Shown here in pieces: positions 705 to 14,259 of a DNA stretch of 64,000 nt. Origin of the DNA: an uncultured Planctomycetales bacterium. Lineage in GTDB: Bacteria; Omnitrophota; Gorgyraeia; Gygaellales; Profunditerraquicolaceae. Under the pieces are notes generated by a model that was not told where the DNA came from, made no database searches, and saw only the letters and a program-made list of their open reading frames with translations. Position 1 is the first letter of the stretch. Each line of letters starts with the position of its first letter. The DNA is taken from the NCBI GenBank assembly GCA_964354795.1, contig CAYHBB010000016.1:4084-68083 (forward strand). The letters are read 5' to 3'. Made by a program: the position numbers and the translations under genes.

Positions 705-2177
705 CTATTTACAGGCCAACACCGGATTATCCGAAAGTTTGACCTTCGGGCAGTGCGGATCAGGAGCAAACGGGTTATCTGAATAAAGCAAGGCGTAGGC
801 GTGGCAGCCGCCGCGGCAGTGGCTAAGGTGCCTGCATTCAAGACAGGTATCCGTCAATTCATCCTTCGGCGTATTTGCTATACGTTCCGCCTCCTGGCTA
901 TTCCATAAATCCTTTAGCGAAGTTTCCCGAATATTGCCTATTTTTAATGATTCCACGCTTGGCAGCAACTCGCACGGCCCAACATCACCGTTTGGCTGGA
1001 TAACCATGCTTGAAATAAATCCACCGCAGGTTGTGCAATGATCAGGAAGGTTTTTCCACTGCATAGGTTTCTTTAACCCTGTTCCCATGATTGTAACGCG
1101 ATGACCAAAATGTTCTTCTGCCTCATTAAGCCTGTTTAGACAATCTTTGCGCTGCGCGTCACTTAACAATAACTCCTTGCCTCCCCTGCCAAACGGCGCG
1201 TTTCCGTAAGGAGCGAAATCAACGATACGGACCCCTAAATCCAAGCAGGTTTCTATAATTTTTCCCGCAAATTTATAATTTAGCGGAATAACCACGGATT
1301 TGACCATTACCTCAATTCCTGCATCAGATAACTTACGGATATTATTTAAGACTATTTCAAATCCCTTTTGAATTCCTGTCATTTTGTAAAATAAATCTTC
1401 CTCAGCCGCATCAAGGCTCACTTGAATTCTTCTCAATCCCGGCTTGACTAAACCTTTTATTATTTCATCGTTTAAATATAATGCATTAGTGCTTATATAC
1501 GGGTATATGCCTCGTTCAAGTAACGCAGAAATAATCGGCAGAAAGCCTTCATGTAAAGTTGGTTCTCCGCCTGTCACAAAACAACGCACAACTCCCATGC
1601 CAGAGGCCTGCTCAACAATATTAAGCCAATCTTGTGTGTTCAATTCGGATTTGGCCTGGGTTCCTGCGCTGCGGAAACAATAAATGCAGCGCATATCGCA
1701 TTTCTGTGTTAATACTGCTACCAAAAACAAAGGGTTAGGACAGCGCCGGCCCTGAGGCGTCTTTCCATTTGTGGCTTCCTTAAGAATTAATTCCGGCGCG
1801 CATAAAGATTTGGTAGCGCCTGCCTGGGCAAGCGGACCTATTGCGAACATTTCTTTATCAAGGCATTTTTCAAATATAGGCCTTATTTCCTGTTTTGCCC
1901 TAGAGGGTGAAATTTTAAAGGCATAACTTACTATATCCAGAAGCTGCGATAAGCTAAATTTGCCATAGCAAAGACAAAGGGCAAACGCCTGCTCTATCGA
2001 AACTCGCAATTGAGCGCCTGTCCACTTATTGACTATCAGGCAATATTGCCCCCATTGTTTCAGGCATATATCTTTGGTTAATTGCGGAAAGGCTTCTTTG
2101 GGATTATCCCAATCAAGCATCGGCTTTGCCAATAAGTTCTTTTTTACTAATACAGCTGTTTCAGTATTACAAGGCAC
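705..2177 (-). CDS. radical SAM / SPASM-domain peptide-modifying enzyme (rSAM-3)
   Basis: 490 aa. CDMRCIYCF (CxxxCxxC), GGEPTL, C-terminal Cys clusters CTTCGG...CLECRHLSHCRGGCHAY typical of SPASM. About 150-aa N-terminal extension could be a peptide-recognition element. Confidence 0.8.
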   Translation of the reverse strand: MPCNTETAVLVKKNLLAKPMLDWDNPKEAFPQLTKDICLKQWGQYCLIVNKWTGAQLRVSIEQAFALCLCYGKFSLSQLLDIVSYAFKISPSRAKQEIRPIFEKCLDKEMFAIGPLAQAGATKSLCAPELILKEATNGKTPQGRRCPNPLFLVAVLTQKCDMRCIYCFRSAGTQAKSELNTQDWLNIVEQASGMGVVRCFVTGGEPTLHEGFLPIISALLERGIYPYISTNALYLNDEIIKGLVKPGLRRIQVSLDAAEEDLFYKMTGIQKGFEIVLNNIRKLSDAGIEVMVKSVVIPLNYKFAGKIIETCLDLGVRIVDFAPYGNAPFGRGGKELLLSDAQRKDCLNRLNEAEEHFGHRVTIMGTGLKKPMQWKNLPDHCTTCGGFISSMVIQPNGDVGPCELLPSVESLKIGNIRETSLKDLWNSQEAERIANTPKDELTDTCLECRHLSHCRGGCHAYALLYSDNPFAPDPHCPKVKLSDNPVLACK

Positions 2178-2254
2178 TTTTGTTTAATCTCCTTACTTTT
2201 GATAACATAAAGCCGGTGACATAATAAAGCCACCGGCTTTATGTATCCTTATTT

Positions 2255-2431
2255 TTAGATATCTGTCCAAGCGATACATGGTGAACAGCCACCGTGTACT
2301 TCCTGACCTTCCACGCCTCCACGAGCCGCCTTCTTCATCATTGGAGCAGCTTTCCTGCGGAATTTTTTGAATTCCGTGGAGATTTTTTTCAGTTCTCTTT
2401 TAAGACACGCTACATCTTTCGCACTTGCCAT
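2255..2431 (-). CDS. 58-aa precursor-like peptide (third candidate RiPP precursor, no NHLP domain)
   Basis: Manually translated: MASAKDVACLKRELKKISTEFKKFRRKAAPMMKKAARGGVEGQEVHGGCSPCIAWTDI. Strong SD (AGGAGGGAGG) 6 nt upstream. Shares a VEGQ junction and an RKELKKAA-like segment with the two NHLP precursors. Below the 60-aa track threshold. Confidence 0.5.
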   Translation of the reverse strand: MASAKDVACLKRELKKISTEFKKFRRKAAPMMKKAARGGVEGQEVHGGCSPCIAWTDI

Positions 2432-2479
2432 TTTTCCTCCCTCCTTTTTTAATTTTTGTTTACCTGCTTGTTAATTTAA

Positions 2480-2911
2480 TTATCCGCGCAGCGAGCAAGC
2501 GTTGGGACAGGTCCAAGGAAATCTCCATGGCTCCCACCATTCTTGCCCTTCCACGCCCAGTGTTTCAGCTTTCCAGGCCAAGGCAGCCTTTTTAAGCTCT
2601 TTCCTATCCCTGACCGCAAAGATTGACAGCATGCTTTTAGGTACCTTATAGAATATACCGCCCTTATCCATTGCCAGGATTGAAGGCTCTGCCTTGGCTG
2701 TGCCTTTGGGCCTTTGGGGAATAGCTATGTGCCAGGTCTTTGGGGTTTCTTCGATGACAATAATCTTGGCTCCGGGACTGAATTTAACCTTAAGCTCTTT
2801 TTCAATGGTAGCCTTGGGGTTTTTGATCAGACGCCTGCGAAAGGCCTTGTCTTTGTTCGCCTTCGCAACAAGATGCGATTCAGCAGCAAAACGCGAGGTG
2901 TTCCTTGCCAT
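2480..2911 (-). CDS. NHLP (nitrile hydratase-like leader) family RiPP precursor peptide B
   Basis: From internal ATG (MARNTSRF...) with AAGGAGG SD. Leader ...AKANKDKAFRRRLIKNPKATIEKELKVKFSPGAKIIVIEETPKTWHIAIPQRP matches the NHLP pattern. C-terminus ...LGVEGQEWWEPWRFPWTCPNACSLRG. Confidence 0.8.
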   Translation of the reverse strand: MARNTSRFAAESHLVAKANKDKAFRRRLIKNPKATIEKELKVKFSPGAKIIVIEETPKTWHIAIPQRPKGTAKAEPSILAMDKGGIFYKVPKSMLSIFAVRDRKELKKAALAWKAETLGVEGQEWWEPWRFPWTCPNACSLRG

Positions 2912-3794
2912 TCTTAGCCTCCTTTGTTTTTCCGTATGAGATAGGTACGCCAAATAGCTGGACAGCCTCAAACTGCATGCCGTAACAACGCCTTTTAAAT
3001 TGGCATTGCAGACATGGCTGGCCTCCTATCCGGTTATAATGACTTCCTACTCCGTCAAACGCCAGTTCCGCCCCTTCTGGAACATGTAATTCCTCCGCTA
3101 CTTTAAAATTCCTGCCTAAAAGGCAAAAAGGGATCAGTTCAGATCTCAAAGGAACGCGCCTAGATTTACCTAAAAGCGAAACTATCACCTTGATCACCTC
3201 TTCGTATTCCGGGATCAGTTCGCTATGTTTTAAAATATCTCCCATCAAAGCAGGATAAGTTATCCTGTGATTTAAGGCATCCGGGAATCGCTCTTGGACC
3301 AATAGGTGTATTGCCGGTATATCGCGCATGTTGGAGTTGACCGCAACCGTGTTAATGATTGTTTTTACTCCTAATTCAAGGGCATTTTCAATCCCCGCTA
3401 AAGCCTCCTCAAAATGCCTTGTTCCTACTATCCTGTTATGGATATCTGCGCAAGAACCATGTAGCGAAAGCATGGCGCTGTGCAAGCCATGCTGCGAAAG
3501 CTCCTTGGCGAATTTTTTGTCGCAAAAACGAGTTGCGTTGGAAAAAAAGCTGATCCTCTTAAATCCCTTCTTTACAGCCGCATCCATGATCTCGAATATT
3601 TGCGGATGCAAAGTAGGTTCTCCCCCGCTTAACACAATAGTATCGCAGTTGCACAGCGACTTTGCTTTATTAAGGTTGCGCCTAATCTCCCGCAGCGGCC
3701 GATGGAAACAATTTCTTCTCCGGCCTATATAACAGAAACTGCACCGCTGATTGCAATGCGTGGTGATATTTAAAAAAACCTGATTATAGCGCAT
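2880..3794 (-). CDS. radical SAM enzyme (rSAM-2), short C-terminal Cys cluster
   Basis: Start placed at MRYNQVFLNITTHCNQRCSFCYIG (CxxxCxxC near N-terminus). ORF could also begin at 3848 or 3863, overlapping precursor A. GGEPTL present; C-terminal CLQCQFKRRC. Overlaps the start of precursor B by about 30 nt. Confidence 0.75.
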   Translation of the reverse strand: MRYNQVFLNITTHCNQRCSFCYIGRRRNCFHRPLREIRRNLNKAKSLCNCDTIVLSGGEPTLHPQIFEIMDAAVKKGFKRISFFSNATRFCDKKFAKELSQHGLHSAMLSLHGSCADIHNRIVGTRHFEEALAGIENALELGVKTIINTVAVNSNMRDIPAIHLLVQERFPDALNHRITYPALMGDILKHSELIPEYEEVIKVIVSLLGKSRRVPLRSELIPFCLLGRNFKVAEELHVPEGAELAFDGVGSHYNRIGGQPCLQCQFKRRCYGMQFEAVQLFGVPISYGKTKEAKNGKEHLAFCC

Positions 3795-3802
3795 AATACC
3801 TT

Positions 3803-4234
3803 TTATCCGCGAATCCCGCAAGTGGGATAAGCCCAAGGACGATTCCATGGAGATTCCCACCATCCTTGCCCTTCCACATCAGGTGTTTCAGCTTTCCAGG
3901 CCCTAGCAGCGCTTTTAAGTTCTTTCCTGCCCCTGACTGCAAAGATTGACAGCATGCCTTGGGGAACCTTATAGAAAATACCTCCTTTATCCTTTACCAG
4001 GATTGAAGGCTCTGCCTTGGCTGTGCCTTTGGGCCTTTGGGGAATAGCTATGTGCCAGGTCTTTGGGGTTTCTTCGATGACAATAATCTTGGCTCCGGGA
4101 CTGAATTTGACCTTAAGCTCTTTTTCAATGGTAGCCTTGGGGTTTTTGATCAGACGCCTGCGAAAAGCCTTGTCTTTGTTCGCCTTTACGACAAGCTGCG
4201 ATTCAGCAGCAAAACGCGAGATGTTCTTTGGCAT
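3803..4234 (-). CDS. NHLP family RiPP precursor peptide A (paralogue of B)
   Basis: From internal ATG (MPKNISRF...) with AAGGAGA SD. Near-identical NHLP leader. C-terminus ...PDVEGQGWWESPWNRPWAYPTCGIRG. Confidence 0.8.
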   Translation of the reverse strand: MPKNISRFAAESQLVVKANKDKAFRRRLIKNPKATIEKELKVKFSPGAKIIVIEETPKTWHIAIPQRPKGTAKAEPSILVKDKGGIFYKVPQGMLSIFAVRGRKELKSAARAWKAETPDVEGQGWWESPWNRPWAYPTCGIRG

Positions 4235-4253
4235 TTTTAGTCTCCTTTCTAAA

Positions 4254-5642
4254 TTAATTGTCACTATACTCAAGCATTAACCTTTTCTCTATGTTATATT
4301 TAAATGTCGGGCATGGCGCGTCGCATTCAAGCCAGCGCCTTGGACATGCACCGCCGCATAATGGCAAGACTCTGCAGGTCCCGCAAGGAACTTCTCCCTG
4401 CTCTATGCGATCATTAAATCCGGATAAAAGAACCCGATTCCCCGGATTTTTGCCGCCGGATAATGACCCTATAGAAAAAATATTCCTGCCTGTTCCATTT
4501 TTAGAACTTGACCCTGCTGGCTTTTCATACATCTGAGAGATTACGTCCGCGCAGTTAAACAGATTGCCAAAAGCATCCACTACCTCTGATGACGCATCTA
4601 TCGCAAAGCAAGCCTTCTTCAGGCGATGCGGGATAAGGTTTATGTTTTGTAATCCGAGATGCTTCATCTGTTCGAGCCATTTAATTTCCCGCGAAGCGAT
4701 CTCCTCTGTTTTGCCAAAAATTCTGTCAGTTAAGCTGCCCCGATCATGCACAGGTATTATAGAAAAACCGTTTAGCCGTTTAAAAACGGCCTTATCCGCC
4801 AGTTCCCGCATCAAGGCGGAAACTCCTTCATAATTGCGATGGTCAACATTACACCGTACCTGGATCTTCATTTTAGATTTTTCATTACGCGCAATCGCGA
4901 TCACATTTTTAAGGATTTTGCCAAATGTCGGCATCCCATTCTTTCCGCATCTTCTCTTATCGTGATACAATTTCGAGCCATCAAGCGTCACTTCGGCAAG
5001 AGTAATGCCGCATTCTCTCGACAGTTCTGCGGCAATTTTGGGGGTAAAAAGCAGGCCATTGGTCATAATATCAGAGATATAATCACACTCAAATTCTCTG
5101 GCCAAGGACATAAACTTCGGGCTCATTTTCCGGATAACATCCAAAGCCAATAAAGGCTCCGCCCCGGTCCAACAGACTTTTAGTTCCCGGTATGGATGCC
5201 TTTCTAATTTGTTTCGCACCCGCTTTAAAAAAAGTTTCTGATTAGCGCTGCTTATTTTTTTTTTCTTGTGCGCCTGGCCGCAGTAGGAACAATCAAACTG
5301 GCAATCTGCCGAAGGCAACACCCCAAAAGCAAGCCTATGGCTATTTACAATGACCTGATGATTCTCCTTCAAGACAGATGCCAATTCATCTTCATCTAAG
5401 CTAACTATAATCTTGGATGCTTTTAACGCCTCCATTAAGCCGTGGGATAACGAATCAAAATCCCCGGTATAGATATGCTCCCACTGCTTGGCAGTTACAA
5501 TTTTAACTGCATCGGTTCTCGTTGCAAAAATAATGCGTTTCTCTTGTCTTTCCAAAGGGCTGAAAAATTTATCCGTTACTATGAGATAGCGCGAGAGTTT
5601 ATAATTGCCTATATCGCGATTTACTCTTAACGCAGTAATCAT
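4254..5642 (-). CDS. radical SAM / SPASM-domain peptide-modifying enzyme (rSAM-1)
   Basis: 462 aa. CQFDCSYCGQ (CxxxCxxC), C-terminal CGTCRVLPLCGGACPRRWLECDAPC SPASM-like clusters. About 110-aa N-terminal domain before the cluster. Confidence 0.8.
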   Translation of the reverse strand: MITALRVNRDIGNYKLSRYLIVTDKFFSPLERQEKRIIFATRTDAVKIVTAKQWEHIYTGDFDSLSHGLMEALKASKIIVSLDEDELASVLKENHQVIVNSHRLAFGVLPSADCQFDCSYCGQAHKKKKISSANQKLFLKRVRNKLERHPYRELKVCWTGAEPLLALDVIRKMSPKFMSLAREFECDYISDIMTNGLLFTPKIAAELSRECGITLAEVTLDGSKLYHDKRRCGKNGMPTFGKILKNVIAIARNEKSKMKIQVRCNVDHRNYEGVSALMRELADKAVFKRLNGFSIIPVHDRGSLTDRIFGKTEEIASREIKWLEQMKHLGLQNINLIPHRLKKACFAIDASSEVVDAFGNLFNCADVISQMYEKPAGSSSKNGTGRNIFSIGSLSGGKNPGNRVLLSGFNDRIEQGEVPCGTCRVLPLCGGACPRRWLECDAPCPTFKYNIEKRLMLEYSDN

Positions 5643-6433
5643 TCTATGTTTACATGCCTTTTTAAAATGGAAAATTTATCAAGCACCGCTTTTACCTGGC
5701 AGCTTCGGATATCAGGAAAAACACTGAGCAAAAGAGCTGCTATTCCGGTTATGTGCGGCGTGGCAAAACTAGTTCCTGAGCTGCGATGATATTCCCCATT
5801 CAGATACACCAGCTCCAGATCCTGGCCCCTTGCGCCGTATTGAATCCTATTTTTTAAATAACGCGTTACTTTATATTTATCTTCGTAATCTTCGCAATCC
5901 ACGCTTATAACAGAGGAAAACATCGCCGGATATCCTAAGGGCCCGAAGTTTCGTTTTGAGACAACCAAAATAGTATCCTGAACATAGGCTTGTTCGCATA
6001 AATCAAAAAGCGCCGGAACGAATTTTTCGTTTATGGTAGCCAAGCTCATATTGATGAGCTTAAATTTTTTATCCAGCGCCCAACGCAACCCTGCTATTAA
6101 GGCCTCGCCTGAGCCTGTATTATTTTCTCCGAGGACTTTTACGCTTGTTATTTCTACATCAGGAGCTAAGTCTAAGATTATTCCCGCAACGCCGCTGCCG
6201 TGGCCGAATGAGTCAGAACTTTTTTTGCCCGGGATTCCCTGGCATCTGATTTTGCCATTATGGTCATGGACGACGCAGGCTCGTTTTACTTTTCCGCGCA
6301 GAGCCGGATGTGATGCGTCAACACCGCTGTCAATAATAGCTACCTTTACTCCCTTACCGGTACTATTGCTAACTAGCCATTTTATATTTAAGCGAGGATT
6401 TATAAGTGGCAGGATGTGAGCCTTGGTTTTCAC
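5639..6433 (-). CDS. subtilisin-like serine peptidase (S8), no signal peptide or prodomain; candidate leader peptidase
   Basis: Catalytic motifs VAIIDSGVD (Asp), FGHGSGVAGII (His), GTSFATPHITG (Ser). 264 aa, begins directly at catalytic domain. 4-nt overlap with rSAM-1. Confidence 0.8.
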   Translation of the reverse strand: MKTKAHILPLINPRLNIKWLVSNSTGKGVKVAIIDSGVDASHPALRGKVKRACVVHDHNGKIRCQGIPGKKSSDSFGHGSGVAGIILDLAPDVEITSVKVLGENNTGSGEALIAGLRWALDKKFKLINMSLATINEKFVPALFDLCEQAYVQDTILVVSKRNFGPLGYPAMFSSVISVDCEDYEDKYKVTRYLKNRIQYGARGQDLELVYLNGEYHRSSGTSFATPHITGIAALLLSVFPDIRSCQVKAVLDKFSILKRHVNIE

Positions 6434-6436
6434 TGC

Positions 6437-7174
6437 TTATTTTCCTTCTCGCAAGCTGCCCTTCCAACTCAGCTCGCCGGCAATCCGGCCGATAATCTCA
6501 ACTAAATCCGCGCAAAGCGGCATTAAATCTTTCCGCTTTTGAGAAAGGTTCCCAAGATTGCGCGCAATATCCACAGCTGCTTTGTCAGAACGCTTTAAAA
6601 ACTTAACCCCGCCCTTTTTTCCCAAAAGCATATTGCGCACAGCTTCCTCGCGCCTGAGCTGGCGTATAACCATTCCGCAGAGCTGGGAAAAACGGCTGTA
6701 AAGCTTTACATCTTGGCTTGAAAAAACTCGGCCCTTTTTAAAGGTAACTGCTGTAATTACTCCAATAACTTCACCTTCAACAAGCATCGGAGCGGCTAAC
6801 ACAGCTTCGGGTTCATTTGGATGCTTCTTTTCATAATCTGCCTGTTTTACGCCGTGATAAGTAGGAGCACCCGTCTGAGGCTCTCCTGTTGACGCGGCTA
6901 ATCCGGTAATTCCTTTGTGCATTGAAAAACGCTGCCCCTTAAGGCGCTGCTGGACTTCATGCTCGCCGATAGTAATCATAAATTCCAGTTCCTGCCTTTT
7001 CTTATCCAACAAGAGCAACGAACCTTCGTCGGCGCTCATCATCCCTACTCCTATTTCCATAATAAGGCGAAGAAGCTCATCGTCTTTTAATTCTTCCCCG
7101 AAGGATAGATACGCGGCAAGCGCCACAAGATTCTTAAATGGAAGCTCTTTTCTTGATGCTTTTTTCTTAACCAT
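6437..7174 (-). CDS. GAF domain protein
   Basis: 245 aa; GAF-like pattern (GSLLLLD...GITGLAASTGEP...VIGVITAV). No DNA-binding or kinase domain. First gene of the co-directional cluster. Confidence 0.5.
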   Translation of the reverse strand: MVKKKASRKELPFKNLVALAAYLSFGEELKDDELLRLIMEIGVGMMSADEGSLLLLDKKRQELEFMITIGEHEVQQRLKGQRFSMHKGITGLAASTGEPQTGAPTYHGVKQADYEKKHPNEPEAVLAAPMLVEGEVIGVITAVTFKKGRVFSSQDVKLYSRFSQLCGMVIRQLRREEAVRNMLLGKKGGVKFLKRSDKAAVDIARNLGNLSQKRKDLMPLCADLVEIIGRIAGELSWKGSLREGK

Positions 7175-7468
7175 ATATTCTTTCCCTTTTTACTAGCGTT
7201 TATAATTTATAATACATTTTGCCTATCTTTATTTTACAATATGGGATTAAAGAGGATCTGCCATAACGGCAGTGCCATAGCACAACACTTCTGATTAAGC
7301 GCAGATAACTCTATTATAAGACAACTAGCTAAAATCTCAACCATAATTGTATAAACAGATATAGCCATACATACGTGGTAATGAATTTACGAGCCATTGC
7401 TGCATGTCTCTGTTGACTACAAACGTATGTACTGCGTTTGTTGAGAAATGGTGATCTGAATATCTGAA

Positions 7469-8878
7469 TTATTTTTTGGAAGGAACCAGGAACACTACCT
7501 CTCCCTCTCCTTCGAGACGACCGTACTGCGGCGTCTGCAGATTGTCCGAGGCACGCGAGACCTGAGGCATGAGGTAGGCGCCAAGCTCCGAGGCGGTCAC
7601 CACCCCATCGTTGTCCCGGTCAGCCTCCCCGTCAATCCCTTGCAAAAAATATTGCGTGAAGAGACCGTGCCCATCAAGTTCGACGACCTGCTCCGCTTTA
7701 CCACCCGCGGTGATCATCTGCACCGAACGTAACGACGTGATCTTCTGGATGTAGCCGTTGATCCCCGGATCCACGCCTAAGGCCCGGGTGAACCCTAGAC
7801 CAGAATAACAGGCGTCCATCGCATACAGGATGTGCTTGGCCGGAATCCGCTCGGATATATCACGCACCTGCTGCATGGAGATGGCCGTCGTAAAATAGTT
7901 GGTGATATCACCGTCGACCGGAATAATGTAACCCTTCTCTTTCCCGTCGGGCATGGATTCGGTCTGTCCGTGGCCAGCAAAGAAAATTAGCACACGATCA
8001 TCCGGCCCGACGTTTTTGGGAAGTTCGGACCCGAGCACGGTCAGAATGCGTTCCCGAGTCGCTTCTTTATCCAGTATCTCGATGACCTCATCGAAACCGA
8101 TCTCTCTAAGCTTCTTCGCAACGACCTGCGCATCGTTTGCCGCATACTCCAGCGGCGGCCAGAGATCGTATTTGTTGATCCCGATCACGACCGCCCAGCT
8201 TTTGCGGTAGAAACTCCCGGCTTTAAGCTCGGCGGGTTCCGCGGACGACTCCGCTGTTCTAACGACAGATGCCGGTAAGCTACGCCGCTGGGCAAAGGAA
8301 GTCATCAGTTCAGACTTGTCCAGGCCGCTCTCGAACTGCTTGAACGCTGGCCCCAGCGCCGCATCGAAGCCATAGCTAAAGGAAACATACGCCGGTGTCG
8401 AGAGCCCGCTGCCTTTAATGGTGTCAATAATGTGCCCCTGCCGATTCGTAAAGGTGCTGGTGATGTCCACCGTGGTGTTCTGGTCGACTTTTTGGCAGAT
8501 CGTACAGCGATAATCAAATGCAAGGATCAGATCCACGTCGGATTTGACCGCATCGTCCATGCTGGCAAACTTCGTCACGCGTTTGAAACGCGACTGAATG
8601 ATTTTGTTCAATCCTTGAGTCACCTTTTTCGGATCGCACTTTTCGAGGAACGGAACAAAGACTCTGTGCCCGTGACGCATATGTTTTCTCATGTAGTCGA
8701 AAGCTTGTTCCGTGTTCTCGGTGTACACCAGTCCAAGATGGATACTCGCTAATGGACCGCCCTGCCCGTAGACCGCTCCTGGTACGACAACTTGTTCCTT
8801 ATAGCTTGGCGTTGCGAGGCATCCAAAGAGAGAAAAACAGGCAATAGTAATAAGCCAATAAAATTTTTGTAAGTTCAT
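7469..8878 (-). CDS. caspase-like (peptidase C14) lipoprotein
   Basis: Start moved to MNLQKFYWLITIACFSLFGC (lipobox, GGAGA SD); the longer track ORF overlaps the upstream gene. C-terminal half has the caspase His/Cys dyad: FFAGHGQTE and DACYSG. Confidence 0.65.
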   Translation of the reverse strand: MNLQKFYWLITIACFSLFGCLATPSYKEQVVVPGAVYGQGGPLASIHLGLVYTENTEQAFDYMRKHMRHGHRVFVPFLEKCDPKKVTQGLNKIIQSRFKRVTKFASMDDAVKSDVDLILAFDYRCTICQKVDQNTTVDITSTFTNRQGHIIDTIKGSGLSTPAYVSFSYGFDAALGPAFKQFESGLDKSELMTSFAQRRSLPASVVRTAESSAEPAELKAGSFYRKSWAVVIGINKYDLWPPLEYAANDAQVVAKKLREIGFDEVIEILDKEATRERILTVLGSELPKNVGPDDRVLIFFAGHGQTESMPDGKEKGYIIPVDGDITNYFTTAISMQQVRDISERIPAKHILYAMDACYSGLGFTRALGVDPGINGYIQKITSLRSVQMITAGGKAEQVVELDGHGLFTQYFLQGIDGEADRDNDGVVTASELGAYLMPQVSRASDNLQTPQYGRLEGEGEVVFLVPSKK

Positions 8879-8915
8879 GGGTTTTGTCTCCTCATTGCCT
8901 TGTGATACGTTTGTA

Positions 8916-9860
8916 TTAGTAATGGAGGTTTGAATATCTGATTTGAAGCAGCTTTTCCCGGCGTTGCCGTATTGCCTCGCTTTGGCTATGTGTTGCACAG
9001 ATAATTCCATACTGCGTAAGCGCGGCATCATAGAGGCGGTAATTCTCAAGAAACAGAATAAATGCCAGGCGCGTAGCTGTCTTTTGAGCATTACGCGACA
9101 GTTCCTCCTGGAAACGCGCTATGTCCGCGCTTAAATACGCGACATCCCTTTCTTTTAACAAATAAAAATAACTGCGTTTCTCAGCGATGACTCTTCTATT
9201 TTTTAAACCTTTGACGTCCCATTTGTAACGGGCGCCAAAGGTAAGGGGGGTTTCAGATTGAGGGTAGGGCAGCTCTTCCCCGGTAGTCGTACTCTGCCAG
9301 AGAAATTTAGCGCCCGGCTCAAGATAAAGGGTCACCGTATAGCTGTCCGCGCCATTCACCGGCTTCCAGCTAAAGGTCGGCCGTTGCTCAAGTATAGCGG
9401 TATTAGAAAGCCCGGTTACTTCTATTTTGCTGTTGAGCGTAACCTCATCTGAACTACTCAGCCCCCTCAGTGTAAAACTACCCTTCTGCGGAGAATCTAT
9501 CTGCGGTAATACCACTTTATTGTTTGCAATAAGCACTCCAGAAGGAATGTGCTTGCTTTGGGCAATTCCCACAACAACTTTCATGCTTCCCGGCCATTGT
9601 TCTTGCTGGCCGGATTCCAAATAATTAATCGTAAAGGAGGCATCCTTTGCGAGCTCTACCATATCACCCGAATACAACAGTTCTCCTAAACCAACTTCTC
9701 TCTTTTTCCCATTCCGCACCAAAGAAACATTCCCTCCTGTATCCATAATAATCGCGCTATAGGAACTATTTTCTGCGACCGCGATCTCGGGCAGAGTGAA
9801 AACGAGAAACGTAAGTGCGGCAACAAGAGAATAAAGGTATGTGTGGCTATTTTTCATCAT
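8916..9860 (-). CDS. secreted protein with FecR-like N-terminal domain and Fn3/Ig-like middle region
   Basis: Signal peptide MMKNSHTYLYSLVAALTFLVFTLPEIAVA. GNVSLVRNGKKREVGLGELLYSGDMVELAKDASFTI resembles the FecR fold pattern. Weak assignment. Confidence 0.4.
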   Translation of the reverse strand: MMKNSHTYLYSLVAALTFLVFTLPEIAVAENSSYSAIIMDTGGNVSLVRNGKKREVGLGELLYSGDMVELAKDASFTINYLESGQQEQWPGSMKVVVGIAQSKHIPSGVLIANNKVVLPQIDSPQKGSFTLRGLSSSDEVTLNSKIEVTGLSNTAILEQRPTFSWKPVNGADSYTVTLYLEPGAKFLWQSTTTGEELPYPQSETPLTFGARYKWDVKGLKNRRVIAEKRSYFYLLKERDVAYLSADIARFQEELSRNAQKTATRLAFILFLENYRLYDAALTQYGIICATHSQSEAIRQRREKLLQIRYSNLHY

Positions 9861-9983
9861 TAAGAGTTATTAAGAAACTTCATTAGTTTATTTTCTGCGT
9901 TATAGAATCGTTGCGTTTGCACCTTAAGCATTTTAAGGGCAACCTCAGGAAACTTTGAGCAGTTTCATGGTTATGTAACTATG

Positions 9984-10955
9984 TTATACGTGTATCGCGC
10001 GAGGAATTGGAATACTGTGGCAAGGGGTCTTTGGCGATATCTCCTCGACCATCTTTTCCAAAAGCCCCACCTTCCCTTCGAAATCAAGCCAGGCCCATTC
10101 GCCATTGGCATTCACCTCTAAAAAGAAGTAGTCCCCATTTGCATACAGCATATCCAGCCGGCCGAAATGAAGCCCTAAGTCGTGCATAAAATGAACTATG
10201 GAATGCTCAAGGGATCTAGGAAGGTGATGGATACACCAGGCGTCCGTAGCGGTATCGGGGCCCATTTCGCGCCAGTCCACGGTTTTGTCTAAAAAAGGTT
10301 CTCGGTTGAGTTCAAACCCATACATCTTACCCCTGACAAAGACAATGGTAATATCGGATGAAGCATTTACATAGTCCTGTATCAGCCATGGAGTCGAGGG
10401 GTCTAATTGATCCTCTTGAACCCTCGTGGTATAGAGAACCGCGTTTTCATTCACTCGTTTTGAGGTGAGACTTTTAACGATGGAAGACTTTCCTTTTTCA
10501 AAAAATTCCGCCGAGCCACTTACGAATTTGTATGGCGGAATTTTAAAATACTTGCTCGCGACTTTGAGCTGAACAAGCTTTCCTATCCTGGCATCTGCCA
10601 TGGGCTCTACGAGAACAAGCTTGCCTTTCGACCAGGCCAGATTGACCATATCGCGCAGCGCATACGAAACTTCTTCTTGCATATAGACAATCTCAGTGCG
10701 GATCTTGCGGTTAGGATACAGCTGCTGTGTCATAAACGGCCTGCGCCAATAGAACTTAGCGATATCGCTGCTGGTAATACAGCGACCGGCCGGGTTTTCG
10801 ATGGAGAATTGAGAATGGTCAATTTTTATTTTGTATTCTTGCCATAAATCAAGATTAAAGCGAAAAACATTCTCGCTTCCAATTTTAGAGATCAATAGAT
10901 CAACCGTGAGATCTAAAGAATTGGTGTAGATAAAAGTGACGGAATTCATCCCCAC
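9984..10955 (-). CDS. ATP-grasp family ligase (peptide-maturase-like)
   Basis: 323 aa. C-terminal GRLDMLYANGDYFFLEVNANGEWAWL matches the ATP-grasp Mg-binding E-x-N region. Size and layout fit RiPP-type ATP-grasp enzymes. Recalled homology only. Confidence 0.55.
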   Translation of the reverse strand: MGMNSVTFIYTNSLDLTVDLLISKIGSENVFRFNLDLWQEYKIKIDHSQFSIENPAGRCITSSDIAKFYWRRPFMTQQLYPNRKIRTEIVYMQEEVSYALRDMVNLAWSKGKLVLVEPMADARIGKLVQLKVASKYFKIPPYKFVSGSAEFFEKGKSSIVKSLTSKRVNENAVLYTTRVQEDQLDPSTPWLIQDYVNASSDITIVFVRGKMYGFELNREPFLDKTVDWREMGPDTATDAWCIHHLPRSLEHSIVHFMHDLGLHFGRLDMLYANGDYFFLEVNANGEWAWLDFEGKVGLLEKMVEEISPKTPCHSIPIPRAIHV

Positions 10956-10983
10956 TGCTTTCGGTGCTTAGTTTCCGCTATTA

Positions 10984-11163
10984 TCACGCATCAGCCTCTT
11001 GTGAGCCTTCACCGTCAAACAAGGTGCTGCTCTTAAGGGCGTGCTTAAGCCCGGGGCACGTAAGATCCAGCTCGCGGCGCTGAGTGTGATGATCATAGGG
11101 CGCCTTCTCTACTTCTTTAATGACACTGCCTTTGCAGCGAGCCAACTCTAAAATTGTCTTCAT
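10984..11163 (-). CDS. 59-aa peptide, candidate ATP-grasp substrate/precursor
   Basis: ATG at 11163 with AAAGGAGGTGA SD 8 nt upstream (the track's GTG start is 3 codons earlier). MKTILELARCKGSVIKEVEKAPYDHHTQRRELDLTCPGLKHALKSSTLFDGEGSQEADA. Tail is rich in S/T/K and D/E. Confidence 0.4.
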   Translation of the reverse strand: MKTILELARCKGSVIKEVEKAPYDHHTQRRELDLTCPGLKHALKSSTLFDGEGSQEADA

Positions 11164-11249
11164 TGCGTTCACCTCCTTTATTTGAAATTGTTATTTACCA
11201 CACACGTCTTCCCTTTTTAAAACAATGGCAAGAAAGATTTGTTACGCCG

Positions 11250-12689
11250 TCACACACTGATGCTTTTAAGCGCGAACTCGCGAATCCTGTTCTCTAAATT
11301 CCCGCGTATGAACCAATAACAGTGATCGTCGTCTTTTAACTTTCCCGACTGAAAACGTCTTTTATGCGCGCAGCCGCCTGCACATTGAGGCAGTACGGGA
11401 CATTTTTTGCACATATCATACTGGAACCAATCATAATTCAGCCAGGGAATTAAATTGCTGAATATAATAGGGTACTTAAGAAAGATTGAGCCATACGCTC
11501 GTTCAACCAACCCCAGATCTTCGACGCATTTATACAGTTCACCTTCGGGGCCGATAGTTGCAGAAGAGTAGCAGGTCGCTGCGCAGCCAGCGTTGCTGGC
11601 TTTTGTCAACGGAACGAAGGTCATAAAAGCTAAACCTAAGGCTTTGGCTTTAGCGGTTTCGCGTCTTAAAATTTCCAAATATGGCTGTGGAGGGATATGC
11701 TGGATTACACAGCCGTCCCTGGCGCACTCCGGCTCAAAAACATTGGCTATATTGATTGATTGTATCCGTTTGTGCAAGTTTCTTCGGATAAGACCGTCAT
11801 AGAGTTGGTCAAACTCCTTTTCATTATCCTGAGTAAGATTAATACGGACGTGTATTCTTAACTTTTCTGCCGCGATACTTAAATTTTCCAGCACTTTATC
11901 CAGAGTATCCCGCCCTTGTTTGTCTTGTTTTGTTGATTTCGGAATATCAACTGTTACCTGAACCAAAGAAACCCTGTATTTATGGAGTAAATTAACAACA
12001 TCCCGGTTTAATAAAGTTCCGTTGGTGGACGACAAGCCGTGGTATTCAATTCCGGCCTTATCAAATGCGGGAATAATCCGGGAGCTGATGCGCTCTATCG
12101 TTCCTACGGCAAGTAACGGTTCTCCTCCGAACCAAACAATCTGCACTCTCTTTTTCTCTCGGGATATTCTGGCGATGTAAGAAACAACTGCATTTTCAGT
12201 TTCCCGGGACATCATTTTGCGATTACGGATAATCTGGGCTTTTCCTTCAAAGCAATAAGGACATTGTAAGTTGCAAAGCAGTGTGGGTACGACATTCAAA
12301 CTTAATATATCATTCCTGTAGCGGGAAAATAAAAGCTGCTGTTTGACAATTTCAAGTTCGTTAATATTTTTGGAGACAAAGAAACCTTTTGAATAAAGAA
12401 GGTGCATGGGCTGCGGAATAGATTTTCCACGCATTTGATATTCAGAACCACGAGATAGGTATTTACGCCAGGCATCGCGATTCAGAATAGCGAGAGTTCC
12501 GGTGAGTGTATTATATACTGCCTTCTTATTGTCAGGTAAATCAACCGATACATTGAACTGCGAGGGGATCCAAGTATCCGAAAACAACTCGTATGCTCTT
12601 TTTACAGATGCCGTTGCGGAAAACAAATTTACTTCTGACTTAGCTTCGGGTGACACTTCAAAAACAGCAGTGGGGTTTTCGTTAGGCAT
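11250..12689 (-). CDS. radical SAM / SPASM-domain enzyme (rSAM-5)
   Basis: CNLQCPYCFEG (CxxxCxxC), GGEPLL, C-terminal CKKCPVLPQCAGGCAHKR SPASM motif. Track start is TTG; ATG start at 12689 (MPNENPTAVF) chosen. Confidence 0.8.
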   Translation of the reverse strand: MPNENPTAVFEVSPEAKSEVNLFSATASVKRAYELFSDTWIPSQFNVSVDLPDNKKAVYNTLTGTLAILNRDAWRKYLSRGSEYQMRGKSIPQPMHLLYSKGFFVSKNINELEIVKQQLLFSRYRNDILSLNVVPTLLCNLQCPYCFEGKAQIIRNRKMMSRETENAVVSYIARISREKKRVQIVWFGGEPLLAVGTIERISSRIIPAFDKAGIEYHGLSSTNGTLLNRDVVNLLHKYRVSLVQVTVDIPKSTKQDKQGRDTLDKVLENLSIAAEKLRIHVRINLTQDNEKEFDQLYDGLIRRNLHKRIQSINIANVFEPECARDGCVIQHIPPQPYLEILRRETAKAKALGLAFMTFVPLTKASNAGCAATCYSSATIGPEGELYKCVEDLGLVERAYGSIFLKYPIIFSNLIPWLNYDWFQYDMCKKCPVLPQCAGGCAHKRRFQSGKLKDDDHCYWFIRGNLENRIREFALKSISV

Positions 12690-12863
12690 ATCTATTAAGC
12701 CTTTGGTTTTGCAAATAGCAGCAGGCAATTTAAAAAAAATCAATTTGCATTGCCGGGGCAGAATTTATCCAATCATCCACGTCAGGATTACTATCTACCC
12801 AGCGGCAGCATGCAATCTTAAGATTTCAGTTCTCTTAGGTATAATACAGCAGCGGCAGTTGTA

Positions 12864-13064
12864 TTATAAGCAAGATGCAAAATAACTTCTCTTGTCCATG
12901 CAGCAGGTGGTCAAATCCACGACATAATCGCAACTTTGACCCGCTACTTCTGCAGATTTTTTCTTGTTGGCTTTTTCAAACTTCGCCTTTGAAATCTTAC
13001 ATTTTTTTAAAACACTGGTTGGTATTGCGTAATATTTTTTCCCTGATTTAATTAGTATCGACAT
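12864..13064 (-). CDS. 66-aa Lys-rich/Cys-rich peptide, candidate rSAM-SPASM substrate
   Basis: SD AGGAGGGG 6 nt upstream. MSILIKSGKKYYAIPTSVLKKCKISKAKFEKANKKKSAEVAGQSCDYVVDLTTCCMDKRSYFASCL. Four Cys in last 24 residues. Immediately upstream of rSAM-5. Confidence 0.45.
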   Translation of the reverse strand: MSILIKSGKKYYAIPTSVLKKCKISKAKFEKANKKKSAEVAGQSCDYVVDLTTCCMDKRSYFASCL

Positions 13065-13314
13065 GGTTTTCCCCTCCTAGCTTTTTGTACCCACACAAAG
13101 GTTGCTTTTAACACCCATTTGGGTCATTCTTTACTACTGAACTACTGAATCTTATCTTGCTATTTCTCTATTTTTTCATCACCTCCTTTTTTTTATAACT
13201 TTCTTTAGTTTTAAAGAAAATTTATCCTTATCCATTGTAGGGTATTATAGCATAAAAAAACGCCTTGATAGCAAAATAAAATCGGCGGAACTTCAGCTGA
13301 CACAACAGCCAAAC

Positions 13315-14259
13315 TCAAGGTTTTCCCTCCAGATAAGCAATAATTGCGGGTGCCGCTTTGCCGTATTCTTCACGCAGCATCTCACAAAACATTTTCCAAT
13401 GACGCGCGGTATCGTCTGTAGCTAATGTACGAGCAATTTCATAAAAGTTATTTCCTGCTGTCGTGGCATGTGGAACCACTATGCTCCCCTGAAATGAATT
13501 CTTATCATCCTTGTTAAGTTCGCAATGAAGCACTTCTTTATCTCCCACTACGTAATCAAGGGCGTTTGTGTAGGTGGGATTGTTTTTACGTATTTTATAT
13601 TCCTCATCCGTATGAAACCGTATCTCAGGATGCTGCGTATGCAACTCCTTGAGTAACTCCTCCGCCGAACCAGCCCTGGGGCGAAACATCTCATTATCTA
13701 ACAGCCAACTGAAATAATAATAGCCGGAACGAATTCCGGGAGGAATTCCTGCCTTCCAGTCCATAGGCACAAGGGGTTTATTGTCGCGTAAAAGCCACTC
13801 TACATAATTGGAATGCGAGTAAAAATCCTGGAGAGTATGAAATGCCTCTCCCAGCATGTACAGCACCCTATTTCTGGATTTCGGATTACCAACTACATTC
13901 GCGGCAGCTATTTTTGCAATGTTCAACTGATGCGTAATATATTCATAACTATCACGAATGCGATTATCATCAAAATGGTGATGGGGGGAATTGGTGAATT
14001 TAGAGCTGAAAGGCCAATCCTGGCTATTGCAGCCTTCAATAATCTTACCTATGCTTTGTTCTTGGAATCCCAGAGGAGTGAGGGCATCTTTCAAGATGCT
14101 TTCGTGAATGGGCTCGCCGAAACCAAAGCGGGTCTTAAAGGCATGGCTATTGTGCGGCACACAAAAAATAAATAGCGCTGCTATCCATATCCACAAACAA
14201 CCATGTTTTGACACCTTATTTACAGACCTTATGTTTATTTCGCTAAACACTATAGACAC
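13315..14259 (-). CDS. secreted Het-C-like / zinc-phospholipase-C-fold protein
   Basis: Signal/TM MSIVF...LWIWIAALFIFCVPHNSHA. Motif HTLQDFYSHSNYVEW resembles the Het-C domain signature. Memory-based. Confidence 0.4.
   Translation of the reverse strand: MSIVFSEINIRSVNKVSKHGCLWIWIAALFIFCVPHNSHAFKTRFGFGEPIHESILKDALTPLGFQEQSIGKIIEGCNSQDWPFSSKFTNSPHHHFDDNRIRDSYEYITHQLNIAKIAAANVVGNPKSRNRVLYMLGEAFHTLQDFYSHSNYVEWLLRDNKPLVPMDWKAGIPPGIRSGYYYFSWLLDNEMFRPRAGSAEELLKELHTQHPEIRFHTDEEYKIRKNNPTYTNALDYVVGDKEVLHCELNKDDKNSFQGSIVVPHATTAGNNFYEIARTLATDDTARHWKMFCEMLREEYGKAAPAIIAYLEGKP

Follow-up and report, generated by a model that had tools for sequence, protein, structure and literature searches.

One described system comparable with the locus analysed here is GRASP-with-SPASM (TIGR04192/TIGR04193; Makarova branch 5; graspetide group 14), a system of the Bacteroidota in which an ATP-grasp ligase, a radical S-adenosylmethionine (rSAM) enzyme with a SPASM domain and small peptides are encoded in one locus. 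The co-occurrence of SPASM enzymes with ATP-grasps in this phylum is described in PMC8939145 and PMC13097080 (group 14 in the latter), and the literature searched contained no chemical characterisation of a GRASP-with-SPASM product. Two further groups are related to single components: the graspetide synthetases of the MvdC/MvdD type, among which structures have been solved for MdnC/MdnB, AMdnB, CdnC, PsnB and PruB, and the rSAM/SPASM maturases of Cys-rich peptides (TIGR04463, Clo7bot TIGR04334, CefB NF038107), with the thioether formers CteB/SCIFF and PapB. The combination of an ATP-grasp, an rSAM/SPASM enzyme and small peptides is also found in a 64,000-nucleotide stretch of contig CAYHBB010000016.1 (hereafter, the window) from an uncultured bacterium of the phylum Omnitrophota, where four co-oriented open reading frames (ORFs) on the minus strand, between positions 9984 and 13064, encode a Cys-rich peptide (pepA), an rSAM/SPASM enzyme, a second small peptide (pepB) and an ATP-grasp protein. 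A sequence-only reading of the window had matched this arrangement to GRASP-with-SPASM. Judged by sequence comparison, the locus is at class level a graspetide cassette plus an rSAM/SPASM cassette for a peptide that is ribosomally synthesised and then modified post-translationally (RiPP), and not a GRASP-with-SPASM system. Its genes probably form two autonomous leader-guided maturation pairs, pepA with the rSAM enzyme and pepB with the ATP-grasp, which became neighbours only recently.

Membership in GRASP-with-SPASM is not borne out by the curated models. The window ATP-grasp scores 63.4 bits against TIGR04192, for a cutoff of 230, and scores higher against the MvdC and SAV_5884 models, while TIGR04193 is not among the best 25 of the 64 NCBIfam hits of the window rSAM enzyme, the weakest of which stands at 42 bits. 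Precursors of the described system are of the types TIGR04139, TIGR04149 and PF14406, and neither pepA nor pepB matches any of them. The window differs further in having two separate precursors, one per enzyme, in another phylum and in recent juxtaposition. The adjacency of the two enzymes is also not conserved: an rSAM enzyme of the window type was found with an ATP-grasp only in the window and in one comparison locus, L001 (a further locus, L091, is too short to tell). Comparison loci carry such L-numbers; a genome scan with the ATP-grasp profile gave 80 loci. L001 belongs to a Candidatus Omnitrophota metagenome-assembled genome (MAG) from Lac Pavin sediment; on sequence grounds the window is a sister strain of L001, because its ATP-grasp is 97% identical and the gene order is the same.

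All four ORFs proposed in the sequence-only reading are present, with minor corrections only, to the point at which the rSAM gene starts and to the coordinates of the 59-residue ORF. On the minus strand, pepA (12864-13064) encodes 66 residues, has the Cys-rich C-terminal core SCDYVVDLTTCCMDKRSYFASCL and is preceded by the Shine-Dalgarno (SD) sequence AGGAGGGG, 7 nt 5' of its ATG. The rSAM/SPASM gene was called mechanically at 11250-12743 from a TTG; its likely start is the ATG at 12689, giving a gene at 11250-12689 and a protein of 479 residues. The 59-residue pepB (10984-11163; MKTILELARCKGSVIKEVEKAPYDHHTQRRELDLTCPGLKHALKSSTLFDGEGSQEADA) carries the SD AAAGGAGGTGA 6 nt 5' of its ATG and ends in the tail KSSTLFDGEGSQEADA; a 62-residue GTG ORF in the ORF list has the same frame. 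Last in order is the ATP-grasp gene (9984-10955), whose 323-residue product contains FLEVNANGEWAWLD. All four are, by their sequence conservation, real genes and not chance ORFs, since homologues of pepB adjoin homologues of the ATP-grasp and homologues of pepA adjoin homologues of the rSAM enzyme. The identities first proposed for them (Cys-rich precursor, rSAM/SPASM enzyme, precursor with Ser/Thr/Lys and an Asp/Glu tail, RiPP ATP-grasp) also hold; for the ATP-grasp, hidden Markov models (HMMs), PDB profile matches and predicted fold agree.

The ATP-grasp resembles the graspetide synthetases. Its NCBIfam matches are RiPP ATP-grasp maturase models only: MvdC (99.5 bits, cutoff 425), SAV_5884 (95.8, cutoff 350), MvdD (75.3, cutoff 475) and, lowest of the four, GRASP_w_spasm. 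It lies below every curated ATP-grasp maturase cutoff and has no Pfam match. A family profile, A1, built from 22 homologues, matches AMdnB (7m4s, E = 1.6e-30), 5ig8, CdnC (7mgv), 5ig9 and 9bou in the PDB over the full length, the matches to AMdnB, MdnB, CdnC, MdnC and PruB ranging from 1e-30 to 1e-13. An AlphaFold2 (AF2) model with a pLDDT of 90.8 gave CdnC, MdnC, AMdnB, MdnB, PruB and PsnB as best Foldseek matches (TM 0.7-0.75), ranked above RimK. Graspetide synthetases share with the window enzyme this fold and the DWR and FLE(V/I)N..GEW motifs; DWR and FLEVNxNGEW are invariant in the window family, as are D268, E280 and N282. Both checks on the proposal that the 323-residue protein is an ATP-grasp, by HMM and by structure prediction, thus returned graspetide synthetases as the best matches. 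Going by these profiles and the predicted fold, the protein is a graspetide-type ATP-grasp macrocyclase that belongs to no curated family.

Its putative cognate substrate, to judge from sequence conservation, is pepB. In L001-L031, L086-88 and L171-173, as in many metagenome loci, the gene directly 5' of the ATP-grasp is a pepB homologue, and about 30 of these homologues, from many phyla, were read residue by residue. By tblastn, pepB was detected in 18 of the loci L002-L032, and ORF inspection revealed precursors of the YDH type in about 27; hosts of these loci include Syntrophaceae, Geobacter, Bradyrhizobium, Nitrospirota, Acidobacteriota, Planctomycetia, Hyphomicrobiales and Verrucomicrobia. 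The same search at E<=1e-3 detected pepB in 29 of the 80 loci of a metagenome scan. No homologue of the window rSAM enzyme or of pepA was found by tblastn in L002-L032. The pepB leader contains the motifs LARxK and YDHxxQxR, and the core reads K44-S-S-T47-L-F-D50-G-E52-G-S-Q-E56-A-D58-A. Across phyla the family alignment retains [ST]xTxFDG[DE], and minimal members conserve only [ST]45-x-T47-x-F-D50-G-[DE]52 (for example, PTSTRFDGDRT and VSDTMFDGEKS). The two Cys of the window pepB are not conserved: C36 is an Arg in L001, and most homologues have no Cys. As in known graspetide loci, the precursor lies directly upstream of the enzyme, Ser/Thr/Lys donors precede Asp/Glu acceptors and, in relatives of the window cassette, an ABC (ATP-binding cassette) or MFS (major facilitator superfamily) exporter is often near.

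By analogy with solved macrocyclases, the ATP-grasp would bind the pepB leader through LARxK and YDHxxQxR, phosphorylate Asp/Glu side chains of the core with ATP, and join them to Ser/Thr(/Lys) donors in rings closed by omega-ester, possibly also amide, bonds. The prediction is of one or two rings, small and nested, from T47 to D50 or E52 and from S45 to the other acceptor, because only these core positions stay conserved in minimal members. K44, S46, E56 and D58 would then be optional additional ring partners in the subfamily of the window pepB.

No curated or published precursor group that we compared describes pepB. It has no Pfam match and no NCBIfam match even at E<=10, and six precursor sequences searched against both databases gave nothing relevant, again up to E<=10. 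The window ATP-grasp falls far short of the microviridin (group 1) models TIGR04185/TIGR04184, which are the MvdC and MvdD models above, and pepB is without the PFFARFL leader and the TxKxPSDx(E/D)(D/E) core. Graspimiditides of the SAV_5884 type (group 13: fuscimiditide, amycolimiditide, albusimiditide) come closer, in that actinobacterial precursors have a YDHxRQ-like leader comparable to that of pepB, and the donor-rich N-terminal arm, central Asp-Gly and acidic C-terminal arm of their stem-loop logic (bioRxiv 10.1101/2023.06.21.545981) are found in pepB too. The corresponding enzyme model, TIGR04187, is among the two best hits of the window enzyme, yet at 96 bits for a cutoff of 350, and there is no match to the TIGR04186 precursor model. 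The core of the window family is also much shorter, and the family occurs in Omnitrophota, Proteobacteria, Nitrospirota and others instead of Actinomycetota. A methyltransferase is neither a recurrent neighbour family in 33 loci nor present in nine Pfam-scanned neighbours, although no search was aimed at a PIMT-type O-methyltransferase. The representative precursors shown in PMC13097080 for groups 25, 27-30 and 32-43 match neither the core nor the leader of pepB; the pepB/ATP-grasp family may already carry a published number among groups 1-24. The core motifs of pepB were not found in the supplements of PMC8939145 and PMC13097080, a weak negative given that these datasets were partial, nor were they found in a full-text literature search. 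A YD(H/P)xxQ leader motif recurs in actinobacterial SAV_5884-type precursors (Actinopolyspora and Amycolatopsis, in the PMC8939145 supplement) and in the representative of group 43 (PMC13097080). This motif may be a recognition element common to distant graspetide groups.

The surroundings of the ATP-grasp family show that elsewhere it occurs as a cassette with no partner of the window rSAM type. The nearest relatives of the window enzyme (60-74% identity) have no rSAM; two of them at 72% (P0004, P0005) and one at 63% (P0014) follow a peptide of 59-60 residues and have ABC/MFS transporters near, again with no rSAM. Clustering of the neighbours in 33 loci returned a fused ABC permease/ATPase, present in 18, as the sole other recurrent partner, with an MFS exporter in its place in Geobacter/Syntrophaceae loci. 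A neighbour-joining tree places the window clade within a set of relatives that have no rSAM. When 1.84 billion cluster representatives were searched with A1, 190 clusters were found at E<=1e-30 and 4,471 at E<=1e-10 (50%-identity clusters), the former presumably including a distant sister clade found in Akkermansia. The pepB/ATP-grasp family is therefore a modest but real one, in about ten phyla, within the large graspetide synthetase superfamily. The sister clade (L039-L080, with the match at about 7001-7900 in most) is 27-33% identical to the window enzyme and widespread among gut MAGs of Akkermansia and other Verrucomicrobia. A different precursor is encoded upstream of it, with a hydrophobic N-terminus, a YNWxxQ leader motif and the C-terminal end ...DDW(H/Y)LA.

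The rSAM enzyme and pepA form the other pair. The enzyme contains the motif CNLQCPYC, a CX3CX2C arrangement, and a complete set of SPASM cysteines (C-X14-C with GX4C, then CX2CX5CX3C, then a last C); it scores 59 bits against PF04055 (cutoff 29.5) and 43 bits against the SPASM model TIGR04085 (cutoff 27). Its top NCBIfam family is TIGR04463, 'rSAM_vs_C_rich' (216 bits, cutoff 525), followed by Clo7bot, CefB, FlmE/OhkG, the geopeptide maturase and PapB (105 bits, cutoff 340); SCIFF scores 63.7 for a cutoff of 425. In the PDB, its sequence matches 8vpo, CteB (5wgg) and anSME. The maturases of Cys-rich peptides are accordingly its best HMM and PDB matches, and they share with it the CX3CX2C motif, a complete SPASM domain, an N-terminal extension of about 140 residues and an adjacent Cys-rich precursor; the window enzyme, at 216, 174 and 155 bits, falls short of their cutoffs (525 to 600). 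From its sequence, the 479-residue protein is an rSAM/SPASM peptide maturase, a member of the superfamily that belongs to no curated family.

The pepA precursor family is likewise unmodelled, with no match in Pfam or in NCBIfam, the latter searched to E<=10. Its leader, MSILIKSGxxYYEIPxxVLKKxKITKxxFEK...ADVAGQ, appears in the window in the Lys-rich form MSILIKSGKKYYAIP..VLKKCKISKAKFEK..SAEVAGQ, and the core ends in C[MLI]xK[KR]S[LY][WF]ASC; the minimal member, from a Verrucomicrobia MAG, has the core ICMSKKSLWASCL. A total of 142 rSAM homologues were found, and each rSAM locus that was examined has a pepA-like peptide beside the homologue: L001, L081/82 (with two copies in L081), L083, L084/85, L089 and L090. 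The small ORFs of both pairs are conserved in homologous loci. Apart from L001, these rSAM relatives (48-86% identity) have the pepA-like neighbour and no ATP-grasp. This constant adjacency suggests that the rSAM enzyme is the cognate enzyme of pepA. It would recognise the MSILIKSG..YYEIP..VAGQ leader and install radical-mediated cross-links in the Cys-rich core, with the C..K.S..ASC segment as the invariant site. By analogy, the cross-links are most likely Cys-derived thioethers, because Cys-rich peptides are the substrates of all the nearest rSAM families; C-C or cyclophane chemistry is a possible alternative, given that Lys, Ser and aromatic residues are conserved in pepA.

In a comparison of window 11250-13064 with L001 96-1896 and L081 4587-6446, pepA and the rSAM enzyme are 72% and 82% identical in amino acid sequence to their L001 counterparts, and the flanking genes 91-97%. 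The window rSAM enzyme is nearer to that of L081 (86%) than to that of L001, though L081 is the more distant of the two, a pattern that suggests allele exchange or diversifying selection on the pepA/rSAM cassette. Most of the divergence of pepA from its L001 counterpart sits in the core, while the leader is conserved. A variable core behind a conserved leader is the usual pattern of RiPP precursors. The region 13065-13213 (minus strand), upstream of pepA, is conserved: blastn aligns it with the sequence that precedes each of the two pepA copies in L081. It has no Rfam match. At about 13176-13197 on the same strand, about 125 nt 5' of pepA, it contains an SD-like AAAGGAGGTGA (at about 13187-13197) followed immediately by the mini-ORF ATG AAA AAA TAG. 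A variant of this element is kept upstream of both L081 pepA copies, and it may be a regulatory leader.

How the two pairs came together can be followed by comparison with L081, where the order is GAF, S8, pepA, rSAM, pepA copy 2, an 836-residue ABC exporter, a cyclic-nucleotide (cNMP)-binding gene, a 313-residue gene and a caspase gene. Window 12696-11169 aligns by blastn with L081 4994-6519. Homology then breaks exactly at window 11169 and resumes exactly at 9974, with a 22-nt remnant (9953-9974, minus strand) that is 95% identical to L081 6942-6963, part of the stretch that separates pepA copy 2 from the ABC gene. Window 9952-9700 corresponds to L081 9882-10134, the last 93 nt of the cNMP gene and the start of the 313-residue gene. 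A 31-codon 3' remnant of the cNMP-binding gene accordingly remains at 9863-9955 (minus strand; tblastn to residues 121-151 of the L081 protein, 77% identity). L091 retains this scar; in L001 it is absent, a further 124 nt having been lost. The interval 9975-11168 (minus strand, 1,194 bp), for which blastn finds no counterpart in L081, contains pepB and the ATP-grasp gene and has its edges 5 nt before the pepB ATG and 9 nt after the ATP-grasp stop. Codon third-position GC content is 0.52-0.57 in this cassette and 0.37-0.43 in pepA and the rSAM gene. We infer an insertion of 1,194 bp because the window keeps a cNMP remnant where L081 has pepA copy 2, the ABC gene and the cNMP gene. These alignments suggest that the pepB/ATP-grasp cassette was inserted recently beside pepA and the rSAM gene.

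The ancestral order would have been that of L081, with pepA, rSAM, pepA copy 2, the ABC exporter, the cNMP-binding gene, the 314-residue gene (as it is in the window) and the caspase gene. The 1.2-kb cassette would have taken the place of pepA copy 2, and deletion would then have removed the exporter together with most of the cNMP gene. At the upstream junction, where L081 homology ends, lies AAAGGAGGTGA (11169-11179, minus strand), which serves as the pepB SD. Recombination at this 11-nt SD microhomology is the likely mechanism, because the same AAAGGAGGTGA occurs in the 5' region of pepA and is the native pepB SD in loci of other phyla (L002, L086, L087, L088 and L140). A mobile element was considered and not called, as no meaningful direct or inverted repeats flank the cassette.

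Several observations weigh against two autonomous pairs that merely became adjacent, and they are taken here with the other explanations. The gaps between the four genes are short and all four have the same orientation. A simple consensus scan of the coding strand places no terminator-like site at a gene boundary, and the sole such site on the minus strand sits within the ATP-grasp gene, although promoter and terminator counts are at shuffle level (4 terminator-like sites, 3.1 expected); an Rfam scan of 9700-13400 gave no match at E<=1. The four genes may thus be on one transcript. How the rings are arranged and which cross-link the rSAM enzyme forms are predicted from sequence. Moreover, no export route is evident for either product, because the window lost the exporter that usually follows the cassette elsewhere: the 836-residue ABC of L081, the ABC of L018 and the C39-ABC of L171 all have no tblastn match in the 64-kb window. 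A further observation comes from other clades. Re-analysis of all loci, those of a metagenome scan included, revealed a different rSAM cassette beside a second clade of the ATP-grasp family (core MKSDTxFDGESKDPD; 41-47% identity) and beside a deep branch (L156). The cassette is composed of a CcpM/TIGR04148-like rSAM of about 540 residues, a peptide with a GG leader and an SCSCSC core (24.4 bits against TIGR04149, cutoff 25) and a C39-ABC. This dual cluster, whose ATP-grasp and precursor are of the window family at 39-47% identity, occurs with varying gene order in nine loci (L015, L019, L024, L025, L135, L137, L140 at 2144-5960, L154 and L156 at 4663-9959) from Nitrospirota, Deltaproteobacteria, Firmicutes-type and other MAGs. 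All three contexts reached from the rSAM side (L171-173) likewise hold a pepB-type precursor, ATP-grasp and ABC beside the SCSC peptide, rSAM and C39-ABC. On the neighbour-joining tree the association occupies one clade and a deep branch (L156/L171) and so spans the deepest split of the ATP-grasp tree. The broad idea of a pairing between ATP-grasp and SPASM enzymes was therefore not baseless, and selection may favour having graspetide and rSAM cassettes side by side. The two cassettes of the window could then be functional partners kept together by selection, each modifying only its own peptide; possible reasons are that the peptides form a two-peptide product, that the cassettes have regulation or export in common, or that the graspetide inhibits proteases and protects or complements its thioether companion, with the window as a third, non-orthologous realisation of a recurrent pairing. 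We consider this rather unlikely. The window rSAM is of another family, with about 25% identity to the SCSC-type enzyme, its Cys-rich peptide is another one, and the dual cluster keeps both exporters. The nearest relatives of the window ATP-grasp are without any rSAM and those of the window rSAM without ATP-grasp, and whereas the dual cluster is conserved in many loci, the juxtaposition in the window is recent and seen in one Omnitrophota lineage only (window, L001, L091). The rSAM enzymes of L171-173 are also 71-84% identical to that of L140, so that they probably represent the same conserved cluster and not independent events. By these comparisons, the co-location of this graspetide cassette with rSAM cassettes has arisen at least twice, with non-orthologous rSAM enzymes, and may reflect either functional partnership or no more than clustering in RiPP islands.

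A true hybrid pathway, in which pepA or pepB receives both rSAM cross-links and ester/amide rings as GRASP-with-SPASM would imply, could draw on the same adjacency and co-orientation, on the Ser/Thr/Lys and Asp residues in the pepA core and the two Cys in the window pepB, and on the Bacteroidota co-occurrence cited above. In L156, moreover, the gene that directly follows the ATP-grasp encodes a 507-residue CefB/PapB-like rSAM/SPASM for which no obvious separate precursor was seen. Nevertheless, each enzyme keeps its own precursor in every locus, even where the other enzyme is absent, the insertion scar implies that the two enzymes did not co-evolve here, and neither the enzyme models nor the precursor families of GRASP-with-SPASM match. 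As a substrate of the rSAM enzyme, pepB was rejected on its unconserved Cys; pepA was rejected as a substrate of the ATP-grasp, for it has no YDHxxQxR leader and its family is never with an ATP-grasp outside this lineage. The sequence-only reading had left open whether the locus makes two different peptides or one that is doubly modified; a thioether-type peptide and a separate graspetide are favoured, and the doubly modified product is highly improbable. Another explanation is decay: once pepA copy 2, the exporter and the cNMP regulator had gone, pepA and the rSAM enzyme, or the graspetide cassette without its usual exporter, would have ceased to be productive. The deletion that left the scar, the lack of an ABC exporter match in the window and the divergence of pepA and the rSAM enzyme from L001 beside far better conserved flanks would fit such decay. 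Against it, none of the four ORFs is broken in either the window or L001, their SDs are strong, the rSAM enzyme keeps every Fe-S cysteine, the divergence of pepA is confined mostly to its core, and the closer resemblance of the rSAM enzyme to that of L081 suggests allele exchange; we regard decay as very unlikely. Two autonomous pairs, recently brought together, thus remain the probable explanation of the locus.

Further genes of this RiPP island flank the four. A GAF-domain protein (6437-7174) and a subtilisin-like S8 protease (5639-6433), both on the minus strand, form a pair that is found beside the rSAM homologue in L081 and L089 as well. By this synteny the pair is probably accessory to pepA and the rSAM enzyme, with the S8 protease as candidate leader protease and processing partner. 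Downstream of the ATP-grasp gene, a secreted protein of 314 residues with a signal peptide and no family match (8916-9860, minus strand) is syntenic in L001, L081/82 and L083. It is followed by a caspase-like C14 peptidase (within 7469-9091, minus strand; matches to PF00656 and NF047832, of the EACC1-associated type, below cutoff). The two are conserved next to the pepA/rSAM cassette in four contexts (the window, L001, L081/82 and L083). The caspase gene probably starts further downstream, near MNLQKF, because the mechanical ORFs of the pair overlap by 176 nt. On the 5' side of pepA, positions 13315-14259 (minus strand) encode another protein of 314 residues, with PF25107 VWA7_N (2.4e-11) and PF07217 Het-C-like matches and a signal-like N-terminus, which has no counterpart in the related rSAM loci examined. 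In L001, 17 nt stand in place of a 3.2-kb block of the window (2458-5668). The block encodes an NHLP-leader precursor (3803-4273), a second TIGR04463-like rSAM/SPASM (4254-5642), another rSAM (2880-3863) and a small ORF, and is another cassette-level indel in the same island.

Taken for genome mining, the locus is a caution that two adjacent RiPP enzymes do not make a hybrid pathway unless comparative evidence says so. It also records the assembly of a RiPP island at nucleotide resolution, in which a module of precursor plus enzyme apparently replaced a precursor gene at an SD microhomology of 11 nt. Two RiPP precursor/enzyme families that the curated models do not capture are newly defined: a compact graspetide family with the very short invariant core [ST]xTxFDG[DE], and a Cys-rich rSAM/SPASM family with the MSILIKSG..YYEIP leader. 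We offer only as a tentative proposal, to which we give a low probability, that the ATP-grasp/precursor family is a habitual partner of rSAM/SPASM and Cys-rich peptide cassettes, and hence a second system outside Bacteroidota in which ATP-grasp and SPASM enzymes are paired, the graspetide and the thioether peptide acting together and the Omnitrophota locus being an independent recent re-creation. If this were true, a small graspetide and a thioether peptide would act as a two-peptide product or as a pair of inhibitor and effector. The recurrent proximity of this ATP-grasp family to rSAM cassettes would make such a partnership approachable by experiment with small and simple substrates.

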